From an uncultured Methanotrichaceae archaeon (GTDB taxonomy: Archaea > Halobacteriota > Methanosarcinia > Methanotrichales > Methanotrichaceae): a DNA stretch of 64,000 nt. The stretch is taken from contig CAZFFD010000001.1 in assembly GCA_964518035.1 (NCBI GenBank), positions 9,386 to 73,385 of the forward strand, read 5' to 3'. Both the position numbers and the translations under genes were made by a program. This document shows positions 6,213 to 55,434 of the stretch, one piece after another (the first letter of the stretch is position 1; the number at the start of each line of letters is the position of its first letter). The notes beneath the pieces were generated by a model. It made no database searches, was not told the DNA's origin, and worked only from the letters and a program-made list of their open reading frames with translations.

Positions 6213-7385
6213 TCATGCGAGCGCATACCCCAGTAGCCTTGCCAGACGGATGGCGTCCCAGTCCAGGTGCCGGAGCATTCGTACCATGAGTCTGCTAGGC
6301 CGGTCGATGTCGCCGTGCTCCTCGATTGCTTTTATGAGCCTAGGTTTCGCTGCCAGGTAGCCCACCAGCTCGTCGATCTCGTATGGCTTCATCTTCGCCA
6401 TCATTCGGTTGACTCTCATGCCGATCTCCAGCTCCCGTCCCAGTGCTGCCCTCCAGAGCCGGTCATACTCGGACAGACGCTGAGCTGAGCTGTCGCCCTC
6501 CATTGCTGCGGCAGCAGCCACGCCTCCGGCAATCTTCGCGGCCACCAGTCCGGGATAGACGCCTCCGCCGGATGTAGGCTTGACCTGGCCGGCTGCGTCG
6601 CCCACTGCCAAGAGCCCGTGGACCGCAGTGGCTCCAGGCGGGCCCAGCGGCAGGCCTCCAACATTAAGCGCCACAGGCGAGCCCAGAAGCCTTTTGGCAA
6701 TTATGTCTGATTTCAAAAACGTCCTCAGCCTGTCGCAGCCGCGATCGCTGGCGCATAGCCCGATCCTGGCTGTGCTCTTGCTCAAAGGAATCACCCAGGC
6801 GAAGAGTCCGGAGGCCTGGCCCAGGTGGACCTCGACCTTGTCAGGATCCTCTACTGCAAAGGCTGCCTCCACTTGGGCACCTGAGAGAATGGTCTGCGGT
6901 GGCGCGATGCCAGCTCGGCGGGCCAGAATAGCAGAGACTCCCTCGGCAGATATGACGACTCTGGCTGAGATCTCGCTATCATCAGAGAGTACCAGGATTC
7001 TTCTTTCGCCGTCCATCTTAATCCCTCTCACTCTTGAGCAGAGACGAAGGCTTGCGCCCTCCTGCATTGCCTGGTTCACAAGCGCCCGGTCAAAGAGCCT
7101 CCTGTCCACTACCCAGGCCCGGCGCTCTTTTGCCTTGAAGTCCAGGCGTGCCCCACCCGGCGAAAAAACGCTTGCGCCAAACATGCCTCTCCTAATGAAG
7201 GAGCCAGCTGGAAGCTCGGACTCGGCGAGAGCCTCTCTGCCCAAGAGTCCGGCGCATTGCACCGGCCAGCCCACTGCTGGATGCTCCTCCAGGAGAATTG
7301 TGCTGGCACCGGCTTTGGCAGCATACTTGGCTGCCATGCTGCCAGCCGGCCCGGCACCGATGACGGCTATGTCGAAGATGTCCAT
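6213..7385 (-). CDS. Geranylgeranyl reductase family FAD-dependent oxidoreductase (probable digeranylgeranylglycerophospholipid reductase)
   Basis: 390 aa. N-terminal dinucleotide fold IAVIGAGPAGSMAAKYAAKAG and later LAVGDAAGQVKP, typical of archaeal GGR proteins. Confidence 0.8.
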   Translation of the reverse strand: MDIFDIAVIGAGPAGSMAAKYAAKAGASTILLEEHPAVGWPVQCAGLLGREALAESELPAGSFIRRGMFGASVFSPGGARLDFKAKERRAWVVDRRLFDRALVNQAMQEGASLRLCSRVRGIKMDGERRILVLSDDSEISARVVISAEGVSAILARRAGIAPPQTILSGAQVEAAFAVEDPDKVEVHLGQASGLFAWVIPLSKSTARIGLCASDRGCDRLRTFLKSDIIAKRLLGSPVALNVGGLPLGPPGATAVHGLLAVGDAAGQVKPTSGGGVYPGLVAAKIAGGVAAAAAMEGDSSAQRLSEYDRLWRAALGRELEIGMRVNRMMAKMKPYEIDELVGYLAAKPRLIKAIEEHGDIDRPSRLMVRMLRHLDWDAIRLARLLGYALA

Positions 7386-7686
7386 AATCGAGGTTTGAGT
7401 TGTCAGGCCTCGATGTTAACTTTTTCTGTGTTCAATGATCTTTATCTCTACTCTCGTGCTTCCTTTTTGCCACCACCACAAGAAATATGAGTATGTAAAC
7501 CCTACCGGATTCTCACATGTAGATTACCACTATGATCAATTCATAATCATATAATTCTTGGAAACTGGAATTATCTCAGCTTCGATTAGACATTGTGCAA
7601 TCATAAAAGTTATGAAATTTTAAGACATGATCTCAAATACCTATAAATTATCAACATGGCTTTTTAGTCTCAGGAGGCTAAGTAAA

Positions 7687-9021
7687 ATGGCCCTTGATCT
7701 TAAGACAAAAGACGAAGTCTTTGAAGCAATTGACAAATATAATGTAAGGTTTGTCCGAATTTGGTTTACAGATATCCTGGGCGTCCCAAAGAGCTTTGCA
7801 ATCAACCCCAACGAACTGGAAGGTGCATTCTCTGAGGGCATGGGCTTTGACGGCTCCTCCATCGAGGGCTTTGCCAGAATCCATGAATCCGACATGGTCG
7901 CCAAGCCGGACCCAACCACATTCCAGCTCATCCCCTGGAGGCAGCACGAGAACGCCGTGGCCCGCATGTTCTGCGACATCCAGAACCCCAACGGCACTCC
8001 TTACGAGGGCGACCCCAGGAACGTCCTGAAGAGAAACCTGTCCCGGATCAAGGATAAGGGCTACAGCTTCCTGGTAGGACCGGAGCTTGAGTTCTTCTAC
8101 TTTAAGGGCGAGCATAGCACCGAGACGCTGGACACAGGTGGATACTTCGACCTGACCACCGCAGACAACGCTTCCGACCTGCGCCGTGATACCATCCTGG
8201 CCCTGGACTCCATGGGCATCGATGTCGAGTACAGCCACCATGAGGTCGCACCATCCCAGCACGAGATAGATCTGCGCTACAAGGACGCCCTCTCAATGGC
8301 CGACACGGTCATGACCTACAAGATCACAGTCAAGGAGGTCGCTCGCAGGTACGGCTACCATGCCAGCTTCATGCCCAAGCCCATCTTCGGCCAGAACGGC
8401 AGCGGCATGCACGTTCACCAGTCCCTCTTCCAGGGCAAGAGAAATGTCATGTTTGACGCAGGCGACGCATTCCACCTCTCTGAGGAGGGCAAGTACTACA
8501 TTGCCGGCCTGCTCAAGCACGCACCTGAGATCACAGCTGTCACCAACCAGTGGGTCAACTCCTACAAGCGCCTGGTCCCCGGCTACGAAGCACCTGTCTA
8601 CATCTGCTGGGCCAGAAGGAACAGATCTGCTCTCGTCAGAGTCCCAATGTACAAGCCCGGAAAGGAGGCAGCCACCAGAGTCGAGTTCAGGAGCCCCGAT
8701 CCAGCAGCTAACCCGTACCTGGCCTTCTCAGTCATGTTGGCTGCAGGTCTTGCTGGCATCGCCAACAAATATGATCTGCCAGCACCACAGGAGCAGGATA
8801 TCTACCACATGAGCGATGATGAGCGGAAGAAGGTAGGAATCACATCTCTGCCAGGCAGCCTCAACGATGCCATACAGCTCGCTGAAGGAAGCAAGCTCAT
8901 TCGCGAGGCACTGGGCGAGCACGTCTTCAAGGCATTCATTGCCAACAAGAAGGCTGAGTGGGACGCCTACCGCACGAACGTTACCCAGTGGGAGCTGGAC
9001 AGATACTTGCCTCTGCTCTGA
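7687..9021 (+). CDS. glnA: Glutamine synthetase, type I
   Basis: The ORF track starts at 7627. I prefer ATG 7687, which has AGGAGG about 10 nt upstream and gives the N-terminus MALDLKTKDEV. GS motifs FDGSSIEGF, GSGMHVHQS and NPYLAF are present. Confidence 0.95.
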   Translation: MALDLKTKDEVFEAIDKYNVRFVRIWFTDILGVPKSFAINPNELEGAFSEGMGFDGSSIEGFARIHESDMVAKPDPTTFQLIPWRQHENAVARMFCDIQNPNGTPYEGDPRNVLKRNLSRIKDKGYSFLVGPELEFFYFKGEHSTETLDTGGYFDLTTADNASDLRRDTILALDSMGIDVEYSHHEVAPSQHEIDLRYKDALSMADTVMTYKITVKEVARRYGYHASFMPKPIFGQNGSGMHVHQSLFQGKRNVMFDAGDAFHLSEEGKYYIAGLLKHAPEITAVTNQWVNSYKRLVPGYEAPVYICWARRNRSALVRVPMYKPGKEAATRVEFRSPDPAANPYLAFSVMLAAGLAGIANKYDLPAPQEQDIYHMSDDERKKVGITSLPGSLNDAIQLAEGSKLIREALGEHVFKAFIANKKAEWDAYRTNVTQWELDRYLPLL

Positions 9022-43694: not shown

Positions 43695-43702
43695 TTTATA
43701 AT
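43695..43702 (+). promoter_or_regulatory. TATA-box-like element upstream of the tubulin-like operon
   Basis: TTTATAAT lies 49 nt upstream of the first possible start (TTG 43751), in a 154-nt A+T-rich intergenic region. Confidence 0.4.
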
Positions 43703-43750: not shown

Positions 43751-46700
43751 TTGAGCAGAATTATAGCAGACATGATCGATAAAGTATCGGAATTATGTCC
43801 ATCATTATTTAAGAGTTCCAGAAGAAATGGTTCTCGTCTCGCGTTATTCCTATTATTGATATACACAATTTCTGCCTTGGCCCTTGCCCCGACATGTGCA
43901 GCCCAGAGCGGATATGAGATCCGAAATGCTATTGTAAGTCCAGAGTACGGCAACGAGGACTTCACCTACTCGGCTGAGGTATGGATGAGCGACCAGGCAG
44001 CCGCTGAGGTTGGTGCTCTTGCAGTAACTCAATTCAGTCTAAAGCTGAACATTTACAACGACGGCAAGCTCGTCCATTCTGACTCCTCAGATCAGAGGGG
44101 AATGGGTAAGAGCTCTTTTGTCTTCGGCCCCTACAACTTTAAAAATAGGTTCGGCATATCTGAGACGGAAAATGCCACATTCGAGTTCGTCTTCTATGCA
44201 GGTGGCCAGCAGGTCGCAAAGACCAAGAGACTGCTGGGTCCAATTGTCAAGCCCCCAAATCTGACGGGCACTCCGCTGTTTGACAGAACGCCATATTTCT
44301 TCCAGGGCCTCTCAGTCTCAGCAGGCTTCCGGGATATGGACGGCCTCGACCCCAAGCCGACCTGCCACCTTGTAATCTCAGGCCCGATAGGAAAGAGCGA
44401 AAGCAGGATCTGGGAAACGGCAGATGTCTCATGTCGCTCCTCAGGCAATAGCGCCTACACCTGCACACTCAACGAAGACCTCTCCCAATACAGAGACGGC
44501 GGAAACTTCAGCTTCAAGATTGTCTACAACAACCTCAAGGCGCAGCCCCTCAGCTTTGGCCCTTACAATATCACCCTTCGCCCATACACTCCCACTGCAG
44601 ACAGCTTAAAGATCGACAGGAATCTTGATTACACCAATTTCACCATTTCAGCCACCGTTAAAGATGCCTCTGCAAAGCTTGATGAGAGCCTTCCGCAAGG
44701 CCGGCTCATAATAAGCCGTCCGGGCAAGGCAGAAGTAGCTTATGTTTCAACCGAGCCGGAGATTCTCGGCGAAAAGGCGGTCTTTAAATGGACAAATGAA
44801 AATGAACCCGCCCTCTTCAACAGGAGCGATGTAGATCTGAGCAAGGTTGCGCCGTTTTCTGCCAGATTGGAGTACACGAACGAAAGATGGAACCTCTCTG
44901 CCATGAGCCCGACTGCGAGCTTCAACGTCGTAGAGGAGGTTCCAAAGCTGATCAATCCATCGATTCCCGAAAACGTTTACGTATCCTCTGGCGAGATATC
45001 GGCTCAGGAGATGGCTGTGACCGTCGCCTACAGCAAGGGTCCGGGAGACCTCGATGTAAGGCTCGCCGGCCCCTCAATGGATTATGAGTCCACAAACGCT
45101 CCAACCCCGTTGGGTGGCAACAAGTATCAGTACCGCTGGCAGGTCGAATTCGATGATAGCCACGTTAATAACAATTACACGCTGTCCATGTCATTCGTCC
45201 ATGATCAGGTTGAAGGCGGCAGGTATGATTTTGATGACAGAACCATACACGTCTCCCCGGTCTCAGTCCGGTTCCTGCAGGCCAGCGTCGATTCTCTTGC
45301 CGGATGGTGGAATGATAGCTACACTTACTCGCTTAAGATGGACACCACAGTTCCAGTCAAGGTTCAGCTCCAGGTCTATGACCCATGTAGTAGTGACTGG
45401 ATCAAGAAGCAGACAAAGGACGTGGCGGCAGGGACTGCCAGCGCCATCAACTGGACCCTTCAGCCATTTGCATATGATTGTCAGGAGATGGCGGGTCAGA
45501 ACGCAAAGTACAGGTTCAAAGCCATATTCTCGGGCGAGGAGATTGCATCATCTAGGGCTTATGATGGTCCCAGCTTCCTCGGAGCCAAGCCTGTTTTGGT
45601 GTCCATTTCACCTCAGAGCAATCCAATGGTTGTCTACGTATCAGACGAGGGTGCTTCCAGCAGCGTTTCTGCTACAGTCGAGTATGCAGCAGGGCAGGGC
45701 CAGGCCGCTATTCGCCTGGAGGGGCCGGACGGAACCCTGAAGGTGGATGAGCAGAGCCGCGGAGTTGCTCTTGGCGCGAACAGGTACAGATACGACTGGA
45801 GCCTGCCCTTCGATCTGGCAGATGCTGATAAGAGCTTCAATTTGAGCCTTTCCTACAGCCACGCCACGCTTTCAAGCGAGTATCCGCTAGCCGAAAGAAC
45901 TGTAGTTGTCCAGCCCGTCTCCATTAAGTTTGGAGAGGAAGGTGCATCGGTTTCGCCAAACAAGGGAAGATGGAATGATACCTTTGTCTATTCAGTGCCT
46001 GTGGCATCCACCGTCGATGCGGCAGTCAAGCTGCAGGTCTATAACTCATGCAGCCACACCTGGGCAGAGAGGGCCTCAGGAAAGGTTATCGCAGGTGAGA
46101 CGTTGCTCAACATGACTGCGAAGCCGTTCAAGAGCAAGTGCGCTGATTCGGAAGGGGATGTGGCCATCTATCGTTTCGTTGCCAGCTTCGAGGATAATGC
46201 CTTCGAGTCAGATGTTCATTACGGTCCGAGCATCAGCGGCGGAAAGCCTGAACTGATTTCAGTGGACTACAATCCGGTGTTGCATGTGTCCGTTAATTCG
46301 CCCGCCTATCAGTCTGTCAAGGCGATAGTTGACCTGCCGCAGGGACAGGATGCGATTGAGATCACAACAGTTGGTCCGAATAAGAGTCCCGTTACCGAAG
46401 AGATGAATGGTGTCTATCTGGGTGCAACTCGATACTTATTCACCTGGTCGAAAGAGTATGGCAAAGATGATGTCGGAAACTACACGCTCGACATCAAAAA
46501 TGTCCATCCGCAAACCTCAGGAGGAGAAATAACGTTCTCCGGGACAATGGCGGTCGTCCTGGATGAAGCCAGTTCAGGACTGGAGCCAAAGGCCATCGGG
46601 GACGTGAGCTACCTGCCGGTGCTGTTCGTCACTGCCGAAAAAGGGGCCAGCCAGGCGTTTTTCGCTGAGGTCTACTCGCCCGGAGGCAAGGGAACAATGA

Positions 46701-47917
46701 CATTGAATTTGACAGGTGTCGGCAAAAGCCGGGCGGTTGAGATGAGTGCTACCGAGATGGGTGCAAATCGGTATAGATATGATTATGCGGAGCCGTTTGA
46801 TGCATCGAACGCAGGCAACAACTACATGTTCTCATTGGACTATCAATTGGACGGCAAGAGATATGCGTTATTTGACGACCATATTATGCAGGTGGCATTA
46901 GAGGGAACAGAGCCGGAGCCGATATGGGAGCCCAAGCTCATTTTGGAGTATGACACAACCCTGTATGTGCCAGCGGGTGGAAAAGCAGATCAGCTCATCC
47001 ATGCTACCATCAACTACACCGAAAGCGGAGGCATTCTCAAGTTGAATCTGACAGGTCCGAGCAAGAATTTGACCGAAAGCTTGAGCGACAGAGCTATCGG
47101 AGTTGATAGGTATCTGTACGAGGCCGATATTCCATTTGATGAAAACGACATTGGCAATAGCTTTACAATATCTCTCGCATTCAATCACACGAGTCTCGCC
47201 GGCGGAGATTACAGGTTTGCCGATCATTACATGAGGGTTCTCAAGAAAGCTCCTCTGAGTCAGCAGGGCTCTTCCGGAGCCGGGGACAGTGGACAGGGCA
47301 ATCGCGTCTTTGACAACAGCACGGTGACAGTAATTGGCAATGTAACGCCTGGGGTAGGAGTCATCCAGGCATGGGATGAGAAAGATCCCCTTCATGCATT
47401 GACGTATACTCTGCAGCTTCTTAACTGGAGCTCCAAACAGGTGCCCTGGATAGAGCTGTCTGTAAGGCCGTTCGGATCTGATTCGCCCTGGAAGATCGTA
47501 GGGGATAAGAAACGATATAATCCCACCACCGGAAGCGTGAGCTGGACCCTCAAGCCCTTCTGGGAGACGCCGTTCTTTGGATTAGCCGAGTACAGGTTCC
47601 TGATTGACGGAGCCGAGACGGAGGCATTTAAGGGGCCAGAAATCGTGGCAGTAGTATCCGACGCGGCTGATAGCATAAGCGGCAAGATACATTACTTCGA
47701 AGCAACGGTTAATGCTTCAGAGAACCTGACTGTATGCATGGTTGGTGGAGACAGCAGTCTTCCTGAGAACATCAAGGTCTGGACGACCGAGGGCCAATGC
47801 CAATATTATCAGGCGGATAGCGGTGATCAGACATACAAATGGCAAACGGCTGTGGCTCAAGCCCCTCCGTACTACGATTTCGATATACAGATTAGGGACG
47901 AGGAGAGCATAAAATGA
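43751..47917 (+). CDS. Giant secreted repeat glycoprotein (hypothetical; alternating ~100-aa beta-rich modules)
   Basis: 1388 aa. Signal peptide RRNGSRLALFLLLIYTISALALAPTCAAQ. There are five copies of a module carrying G.NRY.Y.W...FD....N(Y/F).(L/F)SLS(Y/F).H, plus at least three or four copies of a second module with a conserved Cys pair and the Y(R/E)F...GP(S/E)I pattern. About 25 N-x-S/T sequons. The start is TTG 43751 or ATG 43772. Confidence 0.75.
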   Translation: MSRIIADMIDKVSELCPSLFKSSRRNGSRLALFLLLIYTISALALAPTCAAQSGYEIRNAIVSPEYGNEDFTYSAEVWMSDQAAAEVGALAVTQFSLKLNIYNDGKLVHSDSSDQRGMGKSSFVFGPYNFKNRFGISETENATFEFVFYAGGQQVAKTKRLLGPIVKPPNLTGTPLFDRTPYFFQGLSVSAGFRDMDGLDPKPTCHLVISGPIGKSESRIWETADVSCRSSGNSAYTCTLNEDLSQYRDGGNFSFKIVYNNLKAQPLSFGPYNITLRPYTPTADSLKIDRNLDYTNFTISATVKDASAKLDESLPQGRLIISRPGKAEVAYVSTEPEILGEKAVFKWTNENEPALFNRSDVDLSKVAPFSARLEYTNERWNLSAMSPTASFNVVEEVPKLINPSIPENVYVSSGEISAQEMAVTVAYSKGPGDLDVRLAGPSMDYESTNAPTPLGGNKYQYRWQVEFDDSHVNNNYTLSMSFVHDQVEGGRYDFDDRTIHVSPVSVRFLQASVDSLAGWWNDSYTYSLKMDTTVPVKVQLQVYDPCSSDWIKKQTKDVAAGTASAINWTLQPFAYDCQEMAGQNAKYRFKAIFSGEEIASSRAYDGPSFLGAKPVLVSISPQSNPMVVYVSDEGASSSVSATVEYAAGQGQAAIRLEGPDGTLKVDEQSRGVALGANRYRYDWSLPFDLADADKSFNLSLSYSHATLSSEYPLAERTVVVQPVSIKFGEEGASVSPNKGRWNDTFVYSVPVASTVDAAVKLQVYNSCSHTWAERASGKVIAGETLLNMTAKPFKSKCADSEGDVAIYRFVASFEDNAFESDVHYGPSISGGKPELISVDYNPVLHVSVNSPAYQSVKAIVDLPQGQDAIEITTVGPNKSPVTEEMNGVYLGATRYLFTWSKEYGKDDVGNYTLDIKNVHPQTSGGEITFSGTMAVVLDEASSGLEPKAIGDVSYLPVLFVTAEKGASQAFFAEVYSPGGKGTMTLNLTGVGKSRAVEMSATEMGANRYRYDYAEPFDASNAGNNYMFSLDYQLDGKRYALFDDHIMQVALEGTEPEPIWEPKLILEYDTTLYVPAGGKADQLIHATINYTESGGILKLNLTGPSKNLTESLSDRAIGVDRYLYEADIPFDENDIGNSFTISLAFNHTSLAGGDYRFADHYMRVLKKAPLSQQGSSGAGDSGQGNRVFDNSTVTVIGNVTPGVGVIQAWDEKDPLHALTYTLQLLNWSSKQVPWIELSVRPFGSDSPWKIVGDKKRYNPTTGSVSWTLKPFWETPFFGLAEYRFLIDGAETEAFKGPEIVAVVSDAADSISGKIHYFEATVNASENLTVCMVGGDSSLPENIKVWTTEGQCQYYQADSGDQTYKWQTAVAQAPPYYDFDIQIRDEESIK

Positions 47918-49437
47918 ATCGGAAATTGATCTGCATTCTGGTCATATTTGCCATTCTCTTATCAGTACAAAACGTGGTAGGCCCGGCCACAAAATCGTCG
48001 GGATCGACCAGCGGAGGTGGCGGTGGTGGGGGCAGCAAGCCGGTCGATATCGACAAATTGCTCAAGGCAGTGGAAGACGGAAAGAAGAACAAGCCGGATA
48101 CGTTCGAAGAGCTGAAGACCATACTCTGGAAGGACCCGATTACAAGCGAAAACTACACTCTTCCCACTGTGCTGATGTACTACAATGGAAATAACACTAC
48201 AGTCAGCCGGACAGAGCCGATAGATATTATCACCGTGGTCACAAACAACAATCCTCTTGAGATGCGGCGGATGCTCGATCTATATCTTGAGGTAAAGGAC
48301 CCTGGGGAGAGCGTGTATCGGCGGGTCAACTCCTGGCCTGAGAAAATTCAGACCAATGAGTATAACGAAAAACACAATACCACTCAGAGGACTTGGACAA
48401 TGCTGCCATCTTTTCTCTACCTTAAAAAGGTCGGAGAGGTGAGGCTGAGAGTTAATGTGAGCGATGGTGTCAATAAATGGAGCACAGCCAGCTATTCCAG
48501 GGTCAATCCGCCGTTTTACGGCGATCTGGTCTTCAATGTAACAAACAGCCTGCCCAACATGAGCTCCTTTGAGGTGACTCCATCGGGTCTCGTCAGATAT
48601 AATGATCCCATTGAGTACAGGTCGATCATTGAAGACGCAGACGGAGATATGCTAAACGTAACCCTGCATATTCTTGATGAGAACGGCAATGAGTTCAAGA
48701 ATGAAACTATCAACACCAAACCGGGTCCTTTGAGCTTCAAAGCCAATGAATATGGATTCTTTGCAGAAAGCGATTCGGGAAAGAACTTCACTTACTACTA
48801 CAGCTATGATGATGGCATAGGCAACGTCAGCAAAGATCCAGAAGCGCCCTTGAAGGGTCCAAATATCAAAAAAGGCGCCAAGCTCTCTGTGGATCGTCTA
48901 GACTTTACCGGCAGTAGCGAAAATTACTACTGGTGGGATAAATATGGATTTTCCATAAGAGCAAAGAACCTGAACCCGGAGGAATACGAGGTCTCATTTG
49001 CCCTCAGCACCAGGACTGAAAACGGTGAATGGAATACGGTGGAGACCAAGACCGAAAAGATCGGATCTGAGCCTGTGGTTGTGCGCTTCAATAAGACCGA
49101 GCCTTTCAGGGTTACCGATGCCGGCAAGACCTTTTATTACCGGGTCAAATACTCGGAGTATGATCAGAGCGGCAAGGATTCTATGGAGACGAAAGGAGCG
49201 AGGATCAACAGGAAGATCGTGCCCTACAGCATCTACAATAGCGTCATGGTCCTGAATCTCTTTCCGATGTTGTTTATTGTCACGATGATCGGATTTTTCA
49301 TGGAGAGATCTCTCAAGAAGGGAGTCGAGGCTCATGAGCGTTCGTCAAGTGGAGCAGGCACCTCCAGGAAGGAAAGTCCAGCAAGAACCGGCAGGAACTT
49401 TGTGGATTCTATCGCCAAAATGCTTAGGAGGAGATAG
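47914..49437 (+). CDS. Type I single-pass surface glycoprotein with a basic cytoplasmic tail (hypothetical)
   Basis: 507 aa. Signal peptide, SGSTSGGGGGGGSKP linker, sequon-rich ectodomain, C-terminal TM helix VMVLNLFPMLFIVTMIGFFM, then a ~50-aa Arg/Lys/Ser-rich tail. The start overlaps the upstream stop (ATGA). Confidence 0.7.
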   Translation: MNRKLICILVIFAILLSVQNVVGPATKSSGSTSGGGGGGGSKPVDIDKLLKAVEDGKKNKPDTFEELKTILWKDPITSENYTLPTVLMYYNGNNTTVSRTEPIDIITVVTNNNPLEMRRMLDLYLEVKDPGESVYRRVNSWPEKIQTNEYNEKHNTTQRTWTMLPSFLYLKKVGEVRLRVNVSDGVNKWSTASYSRVNPPFYGDLVFNVTNSLPNMSSFEVTPSGLVRYNDPIEYRSIIEDADGDMLNVTLHILDENGNEFKNETINTKPGPLSFKANEYGFFAESDSGKNFTYYYSYDDGIGNVSKDPEAPLKGPNIKKGAKLSVDRLDFTGSSENYYWWDKYGFSIRAKNLNPEEYEVSFALSTRTENGEWNTVETKTEKIGSEPVVVRFNKTEPFRVTDAGKTFYYRVKYSEYDQSGKDSMETKGARINRKIVPYSIYNSVMVLNLFPMLFIVTMIGFFMERSLKKGVEAHERSSSGAGTSRKESPARTGRNFVDSIAKMLRRR

Positions 49438-49439
49438 GC

Positions 49440-50081
49440 ATGGACCCGATTGTGCAATTTCTGATAGATAACCTGTTTGCTGCAGGCACGATTGCGTTGG
49501 TCCTTCTCCTCATTATCGCAGCGGCGTTGCACATCAATAACATAAAAAATGTATATAAATTGATGGGCATCCTGCAGAAAAAGACTGTTGACAAGTCTCA
49601 TTTTTATAAAGAGATGACAGTCTCCCAGGGCTCTAATTTTGCTGCACTTGCTTTTGCATCATGGATAATGCTCTTCGTGGCCATCGCATTTCTCTACTTT
49701 CTGGTCCCAACCGTCTATTCCGTGAGCTTTATGGACTTATCCGAACTGGCATCAAATCCTTTTGGGTTTGCCATATTCGGCATAACCGTGGGTCTGTTGG
49801 CAGCAGTTGTTATCTTCTTCCTGGACAAGCTTCCCGATGACCGGAGGGTGTTCAGGTTAACTGAACTCTACAGCTTTTATGCGATCTCCAAGGGCACAAA
49901 GAAGATGATTGGCCTCACATTAATTGCTCTTTACTGCTCGGTGGTTCTGTCGGCTTATGTCGGCACGATTTATCCGGATAGATCTATGGATGCTCAGCTC
50001 ATCAGCCTTGCCCTGTTGATTGTGTCGGCTGGCATCCTGGTAATGCCGATTTATAAAGAAGCCTGGGAGGCGAGAAGATGA
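49440..50081 (+). CDS. Polytopic membrane protein (hypothetical, about 5 TM helices)
   Basis: 213 aa. ATG lies 2 nt after the upstream stop. Hydrophobic helices at about aa 12-30, 66-90, 108-130, 165-185 and 190-206. Confidence 0.65.
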   Translation: MDPIVQFLIDNLFAAGTIALVLLLIIAAALHINNIKNVYKLMGILQKKTVDKSHFYKEMTVSQGSNFAALAFASWIMLFVAIAFLYFLVPTVYSVSFMDLSELASNPFGFAIFGITVGLLAAVVIFFLDKLPDDRRVFRLTELYSFYAISKGTKKMIGLTLIALYCSVVLSAYVGTIYPDRSMDAQLISLALLIVSAGILVMPIYKEAWEARR

Positions 50082-51739
50082 AGCTATGCATTGTCGGAAT
50101 TGGCGGAGCTGGGGGAAAGGTCACCCAGGAATTTTTGGGAAACGAGGATCTTGAGTTTCCTCTTCTATCCAGGATCACCGGAGCAGAATATGTCTCACCC
50201 GGCACAGTACGAGGTATATGGCTTGAAGCCGACAAAAATGATGCCAAGAACATTCAGCACTTTTTCGGAGATCTGACCGAGGACTGCTACCCCTGTTTTT
50301 ATATTCCTCATGATGCCGTCCCGGATGGATGTGATGTTCATAGAATGGTGCAGGAAAAATATGGCTACGATGTGAAAAAGCAGGGATTTGTCAGAGATGC
50401 TCAGTACCTGAAAGCCATATTCGAGATCTTCGATACCGATCTGCAGATACAGGAGACCGTAGCCAGGACCATGACAAAGGAGATGGTTGAGGCAAAAGGC
50501 GGCGTTCCGGCTGCAAACGGTTCATCCAACAGCCAGGCACCAAATCCCATATTTGATAGCGCCTGGAATGCCATAAGGGGGTTCACAACTCTTGGAAAAG
50601 CAGAATGCGACGGCATACTGTTCATAGTCTCCTTCGGCGGAGGAACTGGAACTGGCTTCATCAATCCGATAATCAATCACATCAGGAATGAAGGCAAAGG
50701 GGCCTATCCTGTCTTTGTTTTAGGCATATTGACGGAACTTGGAGACTTCGCAGACAAAGCCCAGTTCTCCAAGGAGGGTCGGAGAAATCTGGCGGCAATA
50801 AGCGCCCTGTACGATCTGCTCACCAAGGGCAGCGGAGCGAATGGAGTGATAATCGTAGACAATGAGATCATGCTGAAGCGGTTCGGCAATGATTACACTT
50901 CTGCCAACCGCTTCATCCATAAGATCATGCAGCCGGTAGTGGCCGCGCGTGACTACCCGGACGAGATCCCCCCCACTCAGGCCATTGCCGAGCATTCTTC
51001 TGGCGGAGTGTCCAGGCCTCCCATATTTGTGCCGCTCTACGCATCACTGCCCAGAGGCAAGGACCCTGAGGATGCTCTGGTTAAAGCCGCCTTGAGCGAA
51101 GAGGGAAGGCTCTTTGCATGCTCGCCTGAGAAGGCGGATTTTGCGTTCGTATTCTGTAGGGGCTACATAGATTCGGATAAAATTAGAGCGGCCCTATCCA
51201 TGGAGACGGGCATCCCCATTAAAAGCATCTGGCCGATGAGAAAGATGGGCGAGGGAGAGAACGAGATATTGATTCTGCTTCGCAATCCCTATGGCGGAGA
51301 CGCTAAAGCCTATCTTCGAGATGATACCCTGGAGGGCAGGTTTTGCAAGGTGATATCGCTGGCCCTGCAGTACATCCGCCAGAGCCCTGAGGCCCTCTTT
51401 TACATGGGCAAAGAAATGAAAAAAGGAAAGGATGGCGAGTCGGACCAGGTGAGGCTCACCGATGCCTCCAGGCAGGCTCTCAAGGCCTACTTCTTCGGGC
51501 CTGACGGCTCAGGCGAAAAGAGTGGCTTTGTCTATGAGCTGAATGAGGCCAGAAAGAGGCTCCGGGACGGAAAGAAGCCCTTTTTCATCGATCCACTGCG
51601 CATCTTCCAGAAGGAGTCAGTCGCCTCTGATGAGGCAAAGAGATCAAATGGGCCGGCCAAGACTGATGAAGAAATTGCCAGGATCGTTGATGCCAGGATA
51701 CAGGAGCTGATCAAGCAGGGTGTGATAAAGACGCCTTAG
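50078..51739 (+). CDS. Divergent tubulin/FtsZ-superfamily GTPase (CetZ-like N-terminus, long novel C-terminal half)
   Basis: 553 aa. MKLCIVGIGGAGGK (T1 loop, very like the CetZ N-terminus MKxxxIGxGQAGGK). Tubulin signature SFGGGTGTG (nt 50636-50656). VIIVDNEIM (tubulin-like DNE, nt 50858-50866). No signal peptide or TM helix. The start overlaps the upstream stop (ATGA). Confidence 0.7.
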   Translation: MKLCIVGIGGAGGKVTQEFLGNEDLEFPLLSRITGAEYVSPGTVRGIWLEADKNDAKNIQHFFGDLTEDCYPCFYIPHDAVPDGCDVHRMVQEKYGYDVKKQGFVRDAQYLKAIFEIFDTDLQIQETVARTMTKEMVEAKGGVPAANGSSNSQAPNPIFDSAWNAIRGFTTLGKAECDGILFIVSFGGGTGTGFINPIINHIRNEGKGAYPVFVLGILTELGDFADKAQFSKEGRRNLAAISALYDLLTKGSGANGVIIVDNEIMLKRFGNDYTSANRFIHKIMQPVVAARDYPDEIPPTQAIAEHSSGGVSRPPIFVPLYASLPRGKDPEDALVKAALSEEGRLFACSPEKADFAFVFCRGYIDSDKIRAALSMETGIPIKSIWPMRKMGEGENEILILLRNPYGGDAKAYLRDDTLEGRFCKVISLALQYIRQSPEALFYMGKEMKKGKDGESDQVRLTDASRQALKAYFFGPDGSGEKSGFVYELNEARKRLRDGKKPFFIDPLRIFQKESVASDEAKRSNGPAKTDEEIARIVDARIQELIKQGVIKTP

Positions 51740-51905
51740 GGCGAGGGGACGAGCAGGGCAGATTGCCCTTGCTCTTCTTCCGATATTTCCAATACCATCG
51801 CCCAAAACTAATAAATATAAAGCACCTCATCCTGATTTTCGTTAATGCTTCTAATGGACGCAATAGTCGGTGCCAGAAATGGCGCAATTTTTGGGGGTTA
51901 AAATC

Positions 51906-52472
51906 ATGCTCAGTAGATTCCATAGTATCACACGATTGGCATTGGTGGCTCTGTCCATCTTTGCCGCAGCAGGAACAGCTCTATCTCTCGATTGGGATAG
52001 CTACACTCCGGCGCACGCGGTCGGAACCGCGGACGACGAATGGTGGACTGCATATCCCGATCAACATGAAAACGCCGGCTCTTCCGTGGAGCACCTTGAC
52101 TGGGTAATAGACGATCTCAAAGACAAGCCGGTGCTTCTTTTTGTGCATAGCAGCAACTGCAAGCCATGTCTGGCCCAGATGCCCAGAGTCCAATCGGCTG
52201 TAGACAGATTTGGCGATGATCTGCATTATTATGATATTCTGGCAGAAGATAGCGGCTATGAAAAGGCCCTTGGCATTTTGGATGTTTATGATCCGGACGG
52301 CGCAACTCAGTATGTTCCCACAACCATCTTCATCACCCTGGCCAAGAGCCCGGAGGGCGTTGTGGATGTGGTCTGGAACAGCCAAATTGATGCCATGAGC
52401 CAGGATGATATCGACTCTTATGTCGAGGATTCGATATACTACTATAAGGCCAATAGAGACTCCTGGAGCTGA
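51906..52472 (+). CDS. Secreted thioredoxin-fold protein (CxxC)
   Basis: Signal peptide MLSRFHSITRLALVALSIFAAAG. Thioredoxin-like active site LLFVHSSNCKPCLAQ. ATG 51906 is preferred over the track start 51870. Confidence 0.7.
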   Translation: MLSRFHSITRLALVALSIFAAAGTALSLDWDSYTPAHAVGTADDEWWTAYPDQHENAGSSVEHLDWVIDDLKDKPVLLFVHSSNCKPCLAQMPRVQSAVDRFGDDLHYYDILAEDSGYEKALGILDVYDPDGATQYVPTTIFITLAKSPEGVVDVVWNSQIDAMSQDDIDSYVEDSIYYYKANRDSWS

Positions 52473-52474
52473 GG

Positions 52475-53890
52475 GTGGCGGCAATACTGGCTTGCAGAAG
52501 GCCAAGCAAGTTGGAGCTGTTGCCGTCGTCTCCTGCAATGCCTTCAATCCTTTTGGCGGCGGCATTTCTATGCGTTCTCTCTGGCTACGCACTGGCCGAT
52601 GAGGCCGTTGTCGCTCCTGCGTTTACTGCTACGGGAGCAGACGGCGAAAACTTCTCTCTCTCCGACTTTTCCGGCGCGCCCCTGATCCTTCACATCACCA
52701 ACATCGAGATCCCGTTATGTGTTGAATGCGAAGAGTCCCTGAAGGGACAGGTGGAGGAGCTGGCAAGGCTCAGGGCCATGCACCCTGAGGTCCAGATAGC
52801 CACATTGAACCTCCGGAAGAATCCCTACTCACGGGACGGCAGGTCCCTGGCCGAGAAGTGGTGGAAGGTCAATGTCACCTGGCCCTGGGCTGAGGACATC
52901 GAGCCTTATGCTATCGGCAGCAAGTACCTCGACTACTGGAATGTGGATGGCGGATCATCCAATCCCACGCTCCTTCTGATTGACAAGAGCGGCAGCATCG
53001 CCGGGGTCTATCACGTCTACGGAGTAGGAAAGGGCGAGATTGATGGGGTCCAGAGCGCTGAGACGCTTTTCAGCAAGGTTAAAGACCTAGATGCCTCGCG
53101 GTGGCAAGGCCTGGAGGGAGAGATATCCAGGCAGGACGTCTCGGCCTTTGGCATGTTCTTGCTGGGCATTGTGACGTCTCTTGCACCCTGCTCAATTGCT
53201 CTCATGATCGCCGTATTCTCCTATGTCATGACCATCAAGAGGAAGGACGAATACCTGAAGAAGAGCGTCTCCTCCTCCAAAGAGGGATTCATGATGGGAA
53301 TAGCCTTCACATTAGGCATGGCCGCGGTATTCTTTGTTCTGGGGCTTTTCATCTCTCAGGTGGGCCTGTTCATCCGCGACTCCCGGCTATTCGATCTTCT
53401 GGCCGGATTGATCATGATTAGTCTCGGCATCAGCAACATCAAGCCTATCGAGGAGATCCTGGAGCCCATCACCTCACGGCTTCGTCCAGCCGGAGGAGAG
53501 CATTGCGAGACCAAAAAGAGCCTGCTACAGAGATCCGTTGAGGCATCTGTTGCCCTTTTCAAGCACTCTGCCTTTGTCGGAGCGTTTGCCCTCGGAATAT
53601 TCTTTGCCCTCGGCTGGGCTCCCTGCGCCCTCTCAATGGTTTTGCCGGTATTGATCTGGCTCGCGTCGCAAGATGTCACTCCTCTGGCCGGAGGCGTGAT
53701 GCTCTTCATCTTCGGAGTAGGACACGGCGTGCCCATCATCCCCATAGCCACATTTTCGAGAGCTGTGGGTGGAAGGATCGGAGAGAAGTATGTCTCCATC
53801 GGTGCCTGGACCACCAAATTCTTCGGAGTGCTGGTGATAGCTGTGGGCGTGGTTTATGCTGCGAGGTATGCAGGATTCCTGTTGTGGTGA
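52475..53890 (+). CDS. Fusion of an extracytoplasmic TlpA/redoxin-like thioredoxin domain and a CcdA/DsbD-type transmembrane electron-transfer domain
   Basis: N-terminal domain with ILHITNIEIPLCVECEE (CxxC). C-terminal six-helix region with CcdA-like SLAPCSIALM and LGWAPCAL motifs. An alternative start is ATG 52538. Confidence 0.75.
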   Translation: MAAILACRRPSKLELLPSSPAMPSILLAAAFLCVLSGYALADEAVVAPAFTATGADGENFSLSDFSGAPLILHITNIEIPLCVECEESLKGQVEELARLRAMHPEVQIATLNLRKNPYSRDGRSLAEKWWKVNVTWPWAEDIEPYAIGSKYLDYWNVDGGSSNPTLLLIDKSGSIAGVYHVYGVGKGEIDGVQSAETLFSKVKDLDASRWQGLEGEISRQDVSAFGMFLLGIVTSLAPCSIALMIAVFSYVMTIKRKDEYLKKSVSSSKEGFMMGIAFTLGMAAVFFVLGLFISQVGLFIRDSRLFDLLAGLIMISLGISNIKPIEEILEPITSRLRPAGGEHCETKKSLLQRSVEASVALFKHSAFVGAFALGIFFALGWAPCALSMVLPVLIWLASQDVTPLAGGVMLFIFGVGHGVPIIPIATFSRAVGGRIGEKYVSIGAWTTKFFGVLVIAVGVVYAARYAGFLLW

Positions 53891-54783: not shown

Positions 54784-55434
54784 ATGAATTCAATCGTCAA
54801 AGTGGTCATGGCTATATGGTTAAGCCTGATATTCGGGTCGGTTGGATTGCCATTGGCTGTGGCCCAGTCGATGCAGTCCGGTGACTTGGCTTCATCCTCA
54901 TCGCCCCAAATCTATGGCTTCAATCTCTCGCCAGAAGAATTGATCCTGGGTGACACGCCCTTTGCTGTTGCCCTGCAAGCTCATGTTGCAGATGATGATG
55001 GCGATATCGATTCAATTGAGGCAATCTTTTCCAGTCCCTCAAAGAGCCAATTCAAGCGAGCCCTCATGAATCACACGAATCTCATATCCGGAGATGCCAA
55101 GAACGGATCTTATGCCACGAACATAGATTTTTCCCAGTCCTGTGAGGTTGGCCTCTGGACTCTTGATTATCTCATTGCCTGCGATAGAGCCGGGAACTGC
55201 AGGAGAATTGATGCAGCTCTTGCTGAGAAGCTCGGCTATCCAGTAAAGCTGCATATCTCAAAAATCTCCGATCCGGATTCTATCCTGGAGTCTGATGGGA
55301 GTTTCGCAGGCAACGACATCTTTCCAGATCCAAATGAGCTGCGGGGCTGGGCAGATTCTGAGAATAGGTTTTCTGCTCAAAAGAAGATCATCATCAATAG
55401 CATATTCAATCGGCCAGCCATCTGCTGGCCGTGA
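54784..55434 (+). CDS. Secreted hypothetical protein
   Basis: 216 aa with signal peptide MNSIVKVVMAIWLSLIFGSVGLPLAVAQS. No recognised motif. Confidence 0.5.
   Translation: MNSIVKVVMAIWLSLIFGSVGLPLAVAQSMQSGDLASSSSPQIYGFNLSPEELILGDTPFAVALQAHVADDDGDIDSIEAIFSSPSKSQFKRALMNHTNLISGDAKNGSYATNIDFSQSCEVGLWTLDYLIACDRAGNCRRIDAALAEKLGYPVKLHISKISDPDSILESDGSFAGNDIFPDPNELRGWADSENRFSAQKKIIINSIFNRPAICWP

Follow-up and report, generated by a model that had tools for sequence, protein, structure and literature searches.

A divergent tubulin-superfamily protein that lacks the canonical catalytic acid is encoded in a conserved membrane and surface-protein cassette of Methanotrichaceae

Introduction

Tubulin-superfamily proteins are at the core of cell division and cell shape in all domains of life, and each of the characterized families (FtsZ, CetZ, TubZ, PhuZ, BtubAB, and the Odin and Asgard tubulins) represents a new use of the same polymer. 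Here we ask what kind of tubulin-superfamily protein is encoded by gene D, the last gene of a four-gene cassette (A, B, C, D, in that order) in DNA from an uncultured Methanotrichaceae archaeon, and what this protein might do beside its neighbors. The DNA analyzed is a stretch of 64,000 nucleotides (nt), hereafter the window, from contig CAZFFD010000001.1 of GenBank assembly GCA_964518035.1 (positions 9,386 to 73,385 of the forward strand). An earlier note, made from the sequence of the window, described D as a tubulin-superfamily protein with no recognizable T7 catalytic loop and a novel C-terminal half. We find that D represents an undescribed family of the tubulin superfamily that has its own conserved gene system.

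The organisms concerned lend the question further interest. Methanothrix is among Earth's most important acetoclastic methane producers and, to our knowledge, the assembly of its sheathed, plugged filaments is poorly understood.

Results

Predicted fold and superfamily membership of D

The reading frame on which the earlier note relied is genuine. It starts with ATG, encodes 553 amino acids (aa), and carries the sequence GGAGG 8 nt 5′ of the start codon (Table 1). Assignment of D to the tubulin superfamily was borne out by a match to the Pfam Tubulin family, by structural similarity, and by the conserved T1 and T4 motifs. Pfam Tubulin (PF00091) matches D with E=2e-6, although the score is sub-threshold (28.7 bits versus a gathering score of 33), and matches 68/68 aligned family members (best E value, 3.7e-9). 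Tubulin_2 (PF13809) gives weak matches in 63 of the 68; its match to D (14.3 bits; cut-off, 27) covers only aa 180-247, the region of T4. A search of NCBIfam returned no match for D, and neither FtsZ_C (PF12327) nor Tubulin_C (PF03953) matched any of the 68 members, even at E values up to 10. Among sequences of solved structures, the best match of the family profile was CetZ2 (E=5.7e-4), while TubZ matched at E=0.068 and FtsZ sequences matched around T4 only (E≥0.03). Sequence similarity to tubulins was not significant (E values of 0.17 to 2, with OdinTubulin at 0.17).

To compare structures, we used an AlphaFold2 model of D built on the 68-sequence family alignment (predicted local distance difference test score [pLDDT], 79.6; predicted template modeling score, 0.81). 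When this model was searched against the PDB with Foldseek, alpha-, beta-, and gamma-tubulins matched at E values of ~2e-12 with a probability of 1.00 over ~500 alignment columns, and CetZ2 (4b45) gave the highest template modeling score on target, 0.71. Matches in BFVD to phage FtsZ-like proteins (1e-9) and to PhuZ (E=3e-4) were weaker than those to tubulin and CetZ. Following helix H7 and the T7 loop, the model contains H8 (aa 300-308), S7 (316-324), H9 (331-339), S8 (355-361), H10 (366-377), S9 (384-389), and S10 (395-402), after which come five more helices. The last ~250 aa had been thought to resemble nothing known. This view did not survive modeling, as residues ~300-405 form the series H8-S7-H9-S8-H10-S9-S10, and ~105 aa of the supposedly new domain are the standard C-terminal (activation) domain. 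The ~150-aa tail (~406-553) is indeed specific to the family. Thus, based on the order of elements in the model and on tubulin alignments over ~500 columns, the C-terminal half of D is only partly novel, and D as modeled is a complete, highly divergent two-domain protein of the tubulin/FtsZ fold. We hold this identity and the anatomy described here with high confidence.

The T1, T4, and T6 motifs (GIGGAGGK, GGGTGTG, and DNE) occur exactly where the earlier note had placed them and, in the model, GGGTGTG is flanked by strand S4 (aa 179-186) on one side and by helix H4 (aa 192-204) on the other. To assess conservation, we counted residues in 72 family members that share 33-89% identity with the D protein of the window. 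Elements of the nucleotide site are invariant in all 72: T1, a block of residues preceding H3 (G96, D98, K100, G103, and R106), T4 together with N196-P197, and D261-N262. The nucleotide-binding loops of D (T1, a T3-like loop, T4, and T6) are therefore intact.

The spacing between T1 and T4 is unusually long, as had been remarked: 180 aa in D, versus ~100 aa in CetZ (from 4b46, with query residues 171-219 on chain residues 92-138) and ~130-140 aa in tubulins (from 7evb, with query residue 178 on chain residue 131). The large insertions that this spacing had been taken to imply are present. Part of the extra length comes from an H1-S2 loop modeled with low confidence (aa 22-42) and part from an insertion after H3 that includes a low-complexity segment of variable length (aa 134-151). 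The described resemblance of the N terminus to CetZ also held, as seen by comparing MKLCIVGIGGAGGKV of D with MKLAMIGFGQAGGKV of CetZ.

Beyond the canonical fold, the helical extension bears two conserved motifs, YFFG and RL..G..PFF...RIF, and the G..P.F portion of the latter is also present in sequences of a wider clade of relatives. The linker that follows is predicted to be disordered (pLDDT <50 at aa 515-527). The terminal helix shows the conservation pattern D-E-x-x-I-x-x-I-V-D-x-R-I, with a hydrophobic moment of 0.46 and a mean hydrophobicity of -0.25. We consider this helix a candidate partner-binding tail.

The T7 loop and the catalytic position

Regular expressions for the canonical T7 motifs, NxDxx[DE] and GxxNxD, found no match anywhere in the D protein. 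The earlier statement that D has no recognizable T7 loop was thus right as to the motif but not as to the loop, which exists in the AlphaFold model between H7 and H8. The loop carries a motif of its own, R291-(D/N/H)-Y293-P294-x-E296, which in the window protein reads R291-D-Y293-P294-D-E296. P294 is present in 72/72 members, R291 in 68, Y293 in 65, and E296 in 54.

To map the loop onto known families, we used a MAFFT alignment that bridges the family core to ever more distant relatives obtained from an exhaustive profile search. In this alignment, position 302 occupies the catalytic slot, which we take to correspond to D212 of FtsZ and E254 of alpha-tubulin. The residue there is never acidic: 65 of the 72 members have Ala, four Gly, two Pro, and one Ser. 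Position 299, the slot of the first T7 Asp, is Pro in the window protein, whereas many paralogues retain Asp (17/72 members). CetZ-like proteins in the same alignment keep a canonical T7 (D-T-A-E), and three other FtsZ-like proteins carry D-I-Q-D. The wider clade is divided, with D-E-A-D or D-E-S-E in one part and N-L-D-W-S-Q in another.

A hidden Markov model (HMM) alignment to CetZ2 shifts the T7 register by four residues and selects I303 and H306, again without conserved acids; indeed, no acidic residue is conserved across the 72 members anywhere in aa 299-312. When the family profile was aligned with a CetZ-like protein using hhalign, the alignment stopped at the start of H7, short of T7. 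Despite the uncertain register, absence of the canonical catalytic carboxylate is a robust conclusion, since neither the MAFFT nor the HMM register yields a conserved acid. Judged from these alignments, the D family lacks the canonical T7/H8 catalytic acidic residue, and the suggestion that D may be a polymer or switch with altered GTP hydrolysis is a reasonable reading of this absence.

A conserved cassette of surface, membrane, and tubulin-like proteins

Although the earlier note did not mention it, the strongest clue to the role of D is its invariant operon, which includes genes for a five-transmembrane protein (C), a beta-sandwich protein (B), and a giant glycoprotein (A). Protein A has an N-terminal signal or transmembrane segment (aa 30-48) and 26 N-glycosylation sequons; the true start of the gene may be the ATG at 43772. 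The body of A varies between loci, and distant loci often keep just the C-terminal ~190 aa (aa ~1193-1388). Protein B carries a signal peptide, and its parts further include a Gly-rich linker, a helical hairpin, and three beta-sandwich ectodomains; a transmembrane helix (aa 443-476) anchors the protein, with a short, basic tail on the cytoplasmic side. The AlphaFold model of B (pLDDT 75.8) resembles complement MG, FnIII, and Ig-like arrays in Foldseek searches. For protein C, the positive-inside rule predicts an external N terminus and an internal C terminus, with loops at aa 31-66 and 129-155 on the cytoplasmic side. Searches of A, B, and C against Pfam, NCBIfam, PADLOC, PHROGs, and PDB sequences gave nothing above noise, and we dismissed a holin-like match for C (E=0.023) and a C2 match for A (E=0.21) as chance.

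The stop codon of C overlaps the start codon of D by 4 nt (ATGA). This spacing of -4 nt is the commonest at the C-D junction (~50/72 loci), and B and C are mostly separated by -4 or +2 nt. The tight overlap of C and D and the B-C spacing point to translational coupling. A scan of one genome per GTDB species yielded 79 D loci. When these loci were searched with tblastn, the order B-C-D was found wherever the DNA extends far enough upstream, including loci whose D protein shares only 33% identity with that of the window. The cassette is chromosomal, and in both the window and a second locus (L001) its flanks are housekeeping genes.

The arrangement extends beyond the family. All seven wider-clade loci that we retrieved contain a triad of genes for a B-like protein, a protein with four or five transmembrane helices, and a tubulin-like protein. 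The counterpart of C is 173-233 aa long and occupies the same position in each of the seven, and the B-like proteins are secreted or anchored and beta-rich. In the five wider-clade loci tested, the profile of Methanotrichaceae B proteins matches the B-like genes at E values of 5e-39 to 2e-4. Kept in all seven loci, the triad therefore predates the Methanotrichaceae and behaves as a single functional unit.

Other genes accompany the triad in some of these loci. In L082 (62-2197) and L093 (3888-6728), the triad is preceded by a gene for a vWA surface protein that bears a PGF-CTERM archaeosortase signal. Genes for TPR proteins come after the tubulin-like gene in L084, L093, and perhaps L082. Locus L082 also has a second tubulin-like copy directly after the first, split into open reading frames of 150 aa (6608-7060) and 256 aa (7087-7857). 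The first of these contains T4 and VDN and the second begins at the PIIVPCY strand; the copy is a frameshifted or pseudogenized tandem paralogue, or an assembly error.

Distribution of the D family

When the D family profile was searched exhaustively against 1.84 billion protein cluster representatives, 105 representatives were found at E≤1e-3, with CetZ-like proteins appearing just at ~1e-5 to 1e-4. Since the profile finds so few representatives, and CetZ-like ones only at the weak end, D falls outside the CetZ and FtsZ clades. The earlier note had also held that D is neither a canonical CetZ nor a canonical FtsZ, and the weak CetZ match, lack of FtsZ_C, and lack of the T7 D-x-x-E agree with this placement. 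No bacterial relatives of D were found among the 1.84 billion representatives; a partial wider-clade protein with a proteobacterial label probably reflects mis-binning.

The window itself is from a Methanothrix genome. Assemblies assigned to Methanothrix or Methanotrichaceae encode a protein identical to D and more than 300 homologues, each of them named "hypothetical protein." The 79 surveyed loci derive from Methanotrichaceae (Methanothrix, Methanocrinis, and M. harundinacea) or from metagenome-assembled genomes labeled Methanosarcinales, Methanobacteriota, or uncultured archaeon. The lone exception is L033, a 3-kb contig (CAZHLQ010000056.1) in a metagenome-assembled genome labeled Gudongella sp., a bacterium. 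The D protein encoded there shares 56% identity with that of the window, a portion of gene C precedes its gene, and the contig is most likely mis-binned Methanotrichaceae DNA. The D family is therefore essentially confined to Methanotrichaceae, with rare environmental relatives. Two D loci occur in single assemblies in at least three cases (L037 and L056; L052 and L059; L027 and L061), revealing paralogous subfamilies within the family. A search of the window found no second D paralogue.

For M. soehngenii GP6 and M. harundinacea, the entries in a 2023 survey of the archaeal tubulin superfamily are limited to FtsZ1, FtsZ2, and a single CetZ, with no "non-canonical" member, indicating that the D family went undetected there. 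Our literature search found no paper describing the family. As the window protein is sub-threshold in Pfam and the family is absent from NCBIfam and unlisted in the 2023 survey, naming it would close an annotation gap.

Comparison with known families

CetZ (4b45, 4b46, and 3zid) resembles D in its N terminus and T1, in sharing the GGGTG(S/T)G form of T4 and the VDN(D/E) form of T6, and in occurring in the same organisms. However, D is ~160-200 aa longer (553 aa versus ~350-395 aa for the PDB chains), with ~80 extra residues between T1 and T4. CetZ proteins have the catalytic D-x-x-E (VIDTAEI or VVDTSEV), whereas D has P299 and A302 at these positions by MAFFT or I303 and H306 by HMM. The long helical C-terminal extension and the invariant membrane and surface operon are features of D.

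Tubulins, including the Odin and Asgard proteins and BtubA/B, are the top Foldseek matches and also have a long T1-T4 spacing with a long H1-S2 loop; further, the helices after S10 in D lie where tubulin has H11 and H12. The DNE of D resembles the tubulin T6 motif, DNEA. In contrast to tubulins, D has neither a Tubulin_C match nor a GxxNxDxxE motif, and there is no sign of a heterodimer partner. Four wider-clade proteins (P0165, P0167, P0168, and P0173) start with MRECKIGVGGCGG. The eukaryotic tubulin N terminus is MREC/MREI...GQ(A/C)G, and the likeness may be coincidental.

FtsZ differs from D in having the N-x-D-F-A-D motif at T7 and an FtsZ_C domain. TubZ and PhuZ are found in plasmid and phage contexts, while D is chromosomal and matches PhuZ structurally less well than it does tubulin and CetZ. 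FtsZl1 shares with D a divergent GTPase domain, family-specific inserts between T1 and T4, and operons with membrane or secreted proteins, and the vWA gene upstream of the triad in L082 and L093 is a hallmark FtsZl1 neighbor. FtsZl1 proteins, which are ~1000 aa long, contain a coiled coil and a C-terminal domain of alpha helices and lack a recognizable T6-H7 region and C-terminal domain of the tubulin fold (Makarova and Koonin, 2010, PMC2875224). We rejected membership of D in FtsZl1, as Tubulin_2 scores 14.3 rather than the required 27 bits and as H7, T7, and the complete C-terminal domain are all present in the model of D. FtsZl2 proteins resemble D in having T1-T4 inserts and ~300 aa, described as mixed alpha/beta, after the GTPase core; they are proteobacterial, retain T7, and lack conserved neighbors (Makarova and Koonin, 2010). 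They differ from D in taxonomy, T7 state, and operon, a distinction that we draw from the published description only.

Table 1. Positions of the cassette genes, of the parts of protein D, and of nearby sequence elements (window coordinates)
Feature	Coordinates	Strand	Basis
Candidate promoter of the A-D unit: TATA-box-like TTTATAA within the AT-rich spacer that precedes gene A	43696..43702	+	Sequence reading
Gene A, 1388-aa secreted surface protein	43751..47917	+	Open reading frame, hydropathy
Gene B, 507-aa membrane-anchored (bitopic) protein	47914..49437	+	Open reading frame, AlphaFold, Foldseek
Gene C, 213-aa membrane protein with five predicted transmembrane helices	49440..50081	+	Hydropathy
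Gene D, 553-aa tubulin-superfamily protein	50078..51739	+	Open reading frame with ATG start
D, GTPase (nucleotide-binding) domain with insertions, aa 1-272	50078..50893	+	AlphaFold secondary structure, pLDDT; Pfam Tubulin match spans aa 3-212
D, T1 loop GIGGAGGK, aa 7-14	50096..50119	+	G7, I8, G9, G10, and G12 invariant in 72 members
D, T4 signature GGGTGTG, aa 187-193	50636..50656	+	Invariant in 72/72 members
D, T6 motif DNE, aa 261-263	50858..50866	+	D261 and N262 invariant in 72 members
D, T7 (H7-H8) loop, aa 289-299; H7 spans aa 273-288 and H8 spans aa 300-308	50942..50974	+	AlphaFold, MAFFT, residue counts
D, canonical tubulin/FtsZ C-terminal domain, aa 300-405, ending in near-invariant LILLRNPYG	50975..51292	+	AlphaFold, Foldseek, conservation
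D, clade-specific helical extension, aa 406-512 (helices aa 418-441, 462-473, 484-496)	51293..51613	+	AlphaFold, alignment
D, tail, aa 513-553: flexible linker, then conserved charged amphipathic C-terminal helix, aa 530-546	51614..51736	+	Model, alignment
Candidate end of the transcription unit: hairpin GAGCAGGGCA / TGCCCTTGCTC with a T-rich run behind it, just past the D stop codon	51751..51781	+	Sequence reading

Discussion

A proposed role for D and its cassette

How might a tubulin-like protein with intact nucleotide-binding loops and an altered catalytic site act together with membrane and surface proteins? In our proposal, D would bind GTP and assemble head to tail like other tubulin-family proteins. 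In all tubulin-family polymers, the T7 (H7-H8) loop enters the nucleotide pocket of the neighboring subunit. In beta-tubulin, the catalytic H8 position is a non-acidic Lys, and the GTP site that it faces is non-exchangeable and non-hydrolyzed; the case of D would be comparable. Because the inserting T7/H8 region of a D subunit would contribute no catalytic carboxylate, GTP hydrolysis would be slow or absent, and the polymer or oligomer would form a stable scaffold that stays loaded with GTP, not a dynamic filament. The co-translated five-transmembrane protein C would tether this scaffold under the membrane, probably via the linker and C-terminal helix of D; by analogy, the C-terminal peptide of FtsZ binds its membrane anchors. 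C would in turn associate with B, and the ectodomain of B would hold glycoprotein A by the C-terminal domain that is conserved in this otherwise variable protein. The outcome would be a trans-membrane link from a cytoplasmic tubulin-family assembly to a surface glycoprotein structure in sheathed filamentous methanogens. For Methanothrix, we can only speculate that this structure might be the sheath, the spacer plugs, or the cell-cell junctions.

We assign a probability of roughly 0.4 to this mechanism, in which D would bind GTP and act as a scaffold or polymer, impaired in hydrolysis and tethered to an A-B-C surface complex. The more ambitious version is doubtful, though we think it deserves consideration: B-C-D would be an unrecognized trans-envelope system in which a stable sub-membrane tubulin polymer patterns or anchors surface glycoproteins, and the tubulin-like module would also have been captured by STAND/KAP immune-type nucleoside triphosphatases (NTPases). 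If so, this would be the first tubulin-family domain seen in such sensors. The D family joins a full tubulin fold to absence of the canonical catalytic residue, and its cassette offers a concrete candidate for a connection between the archaeal cytoskeleton and the cell envelope.

Several observations weigh against the proposed tethered scaffold. The MAFFT alignment and the HMM alignment to CetZ2 leave the residue correspondence at T7/H8 uncertain by ~4 residues, the T7 loop is modeled with low confidence (pLDDT <50 at aa 290-295), and E296 and D292 in this same loop could stand in as catalytic residues. With respect to the partners, the C profile detects just one wider-clade counterpart in the five loci tested, and that one weakly, and sequence conservation does not extend to the cytoplasmic tail of B. 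Moreover, adjacency of genes is evidence of functional linkage, not of physical contact.

The possible substitution by E296 or D292 is central to a different account, in which D is an ordinary cytomotive filament that is dynamic and hydrolyzes GTP using a relocated acid within RDYPxE. Such a relocation would fit the strong conservation of this motif and its position in the H7-H8 loop that enters the neighbor's pocket. However, E296 is Ala in seven members and another non-acidic residue in six, leaving 13 without the acid, while D292 is His or Asn in 32. With both residues replaced in many members, neither can be strictly required, and we know of no tubulin-family protein that uses a T7 position of the E296 type for catalysis. 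We therefore think this account unlikely. Somewhat less likely still is that D does not polymerize and instead binds GTP as a switch or assembly factor, gating through C the insertion, export, or anchoring of A and B. Absence of the canonical catalytic residue and tight translational coupling to a membrane protein would both suit a switch, and a role outside filaments was raised, as the less likely option, for FtsZl1 (Makarova and Koonin, 2010, PMC2875224). Yet D has retained, with strong conservation, the C-terminal domain and the T7 loop, which in known members serve mainly in longitudinal contacts.

A third line of thought starts from gene fusions. A complete D-type module is fused to the C terminus of defense-type NTPases (P0122, P0123, and P0130), the partners being KAP (with matches to PADLOC QatA, 4e-57, and PifA), CHAT with NB-ARC, and DUF4062 with NB-ARC and WHD_APAF1. 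The fusion genes lie at 773-3826 in L086 and at 1171-4314 in L087, and the DUF4062 and NB-ARC fusion gene of L087 stands amid HicAB, MNT, and MqsA-like toxin-antitoxin genes. Together with the high variability of gene A between loci and the presence of two paralogous cassettes in some assemblies, these fusions could mean that the cassette is a conflict or surface-variation system, acting for example in virus exclusion or receptor masking, with D as a signaling or effector module. We regard this as improbable, as PADLOC and PHROGs contain no matches for A, B, C, or D themselves, the fused NTPase genes stand alone without B or C, and the genes flanking the cassette in the window and L001 are housekeeping genes. 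A simpler idea, that D is just another CetZ or FtsZ paralogue, if a divergent one, and has their usual role in cell shape or division, is largely refuted. It draws on the CetZ-like N terminus and on CetZ2 being the best sequence match among solved structures, but that match reaches just E=5.7e-4, D has 553 aa instead of ~350-395 and lacks D-x-x-E in T7, and its operon is different and invariant. In addition, the 2023 survey reports separate FtsZ1, FtsZ2, and CetZ proteins in M. soehngenii and M. harundinacea.

Neighboring genes and minor observations

Apart from the NTPase fusions, we noted a further CHAT-containing relative of D (P0386). Two family members (P0096 and P0112) and a set of giant relatives (P0189-P0203; 600-1260 aa) carry one or many copies of a module of ~90 aa, inserted after the tubulin core and before the C-terminal helix. 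No Pfam family matched this module in the proteins scanned. Its pattern is roughly F(C/S)WD.(I/V)PG.D...L..FL.....I.WA.NA.I.K.DD..TI.V ... L.VK.E.G.LNIY.

Downstream of the cassette, on the same strand, are genes for a thioredoxin-like protein (51870-52472), with weak AhpC-TSA and Thioredoxin_8 matches, and for a fused Redoxin and DsbD/CcdA-type transmembrane protein (52475-53890). This pair has its own TATA-like element. We rejected both genes as members of the system, as they are not next to the cassette in L001, L002, or the contig encoding P0120. Farther along the window (54784-55434, plus strand), a 216-aa open reading frame has a sub-threshold match to DUF7743 (E=2e-4).

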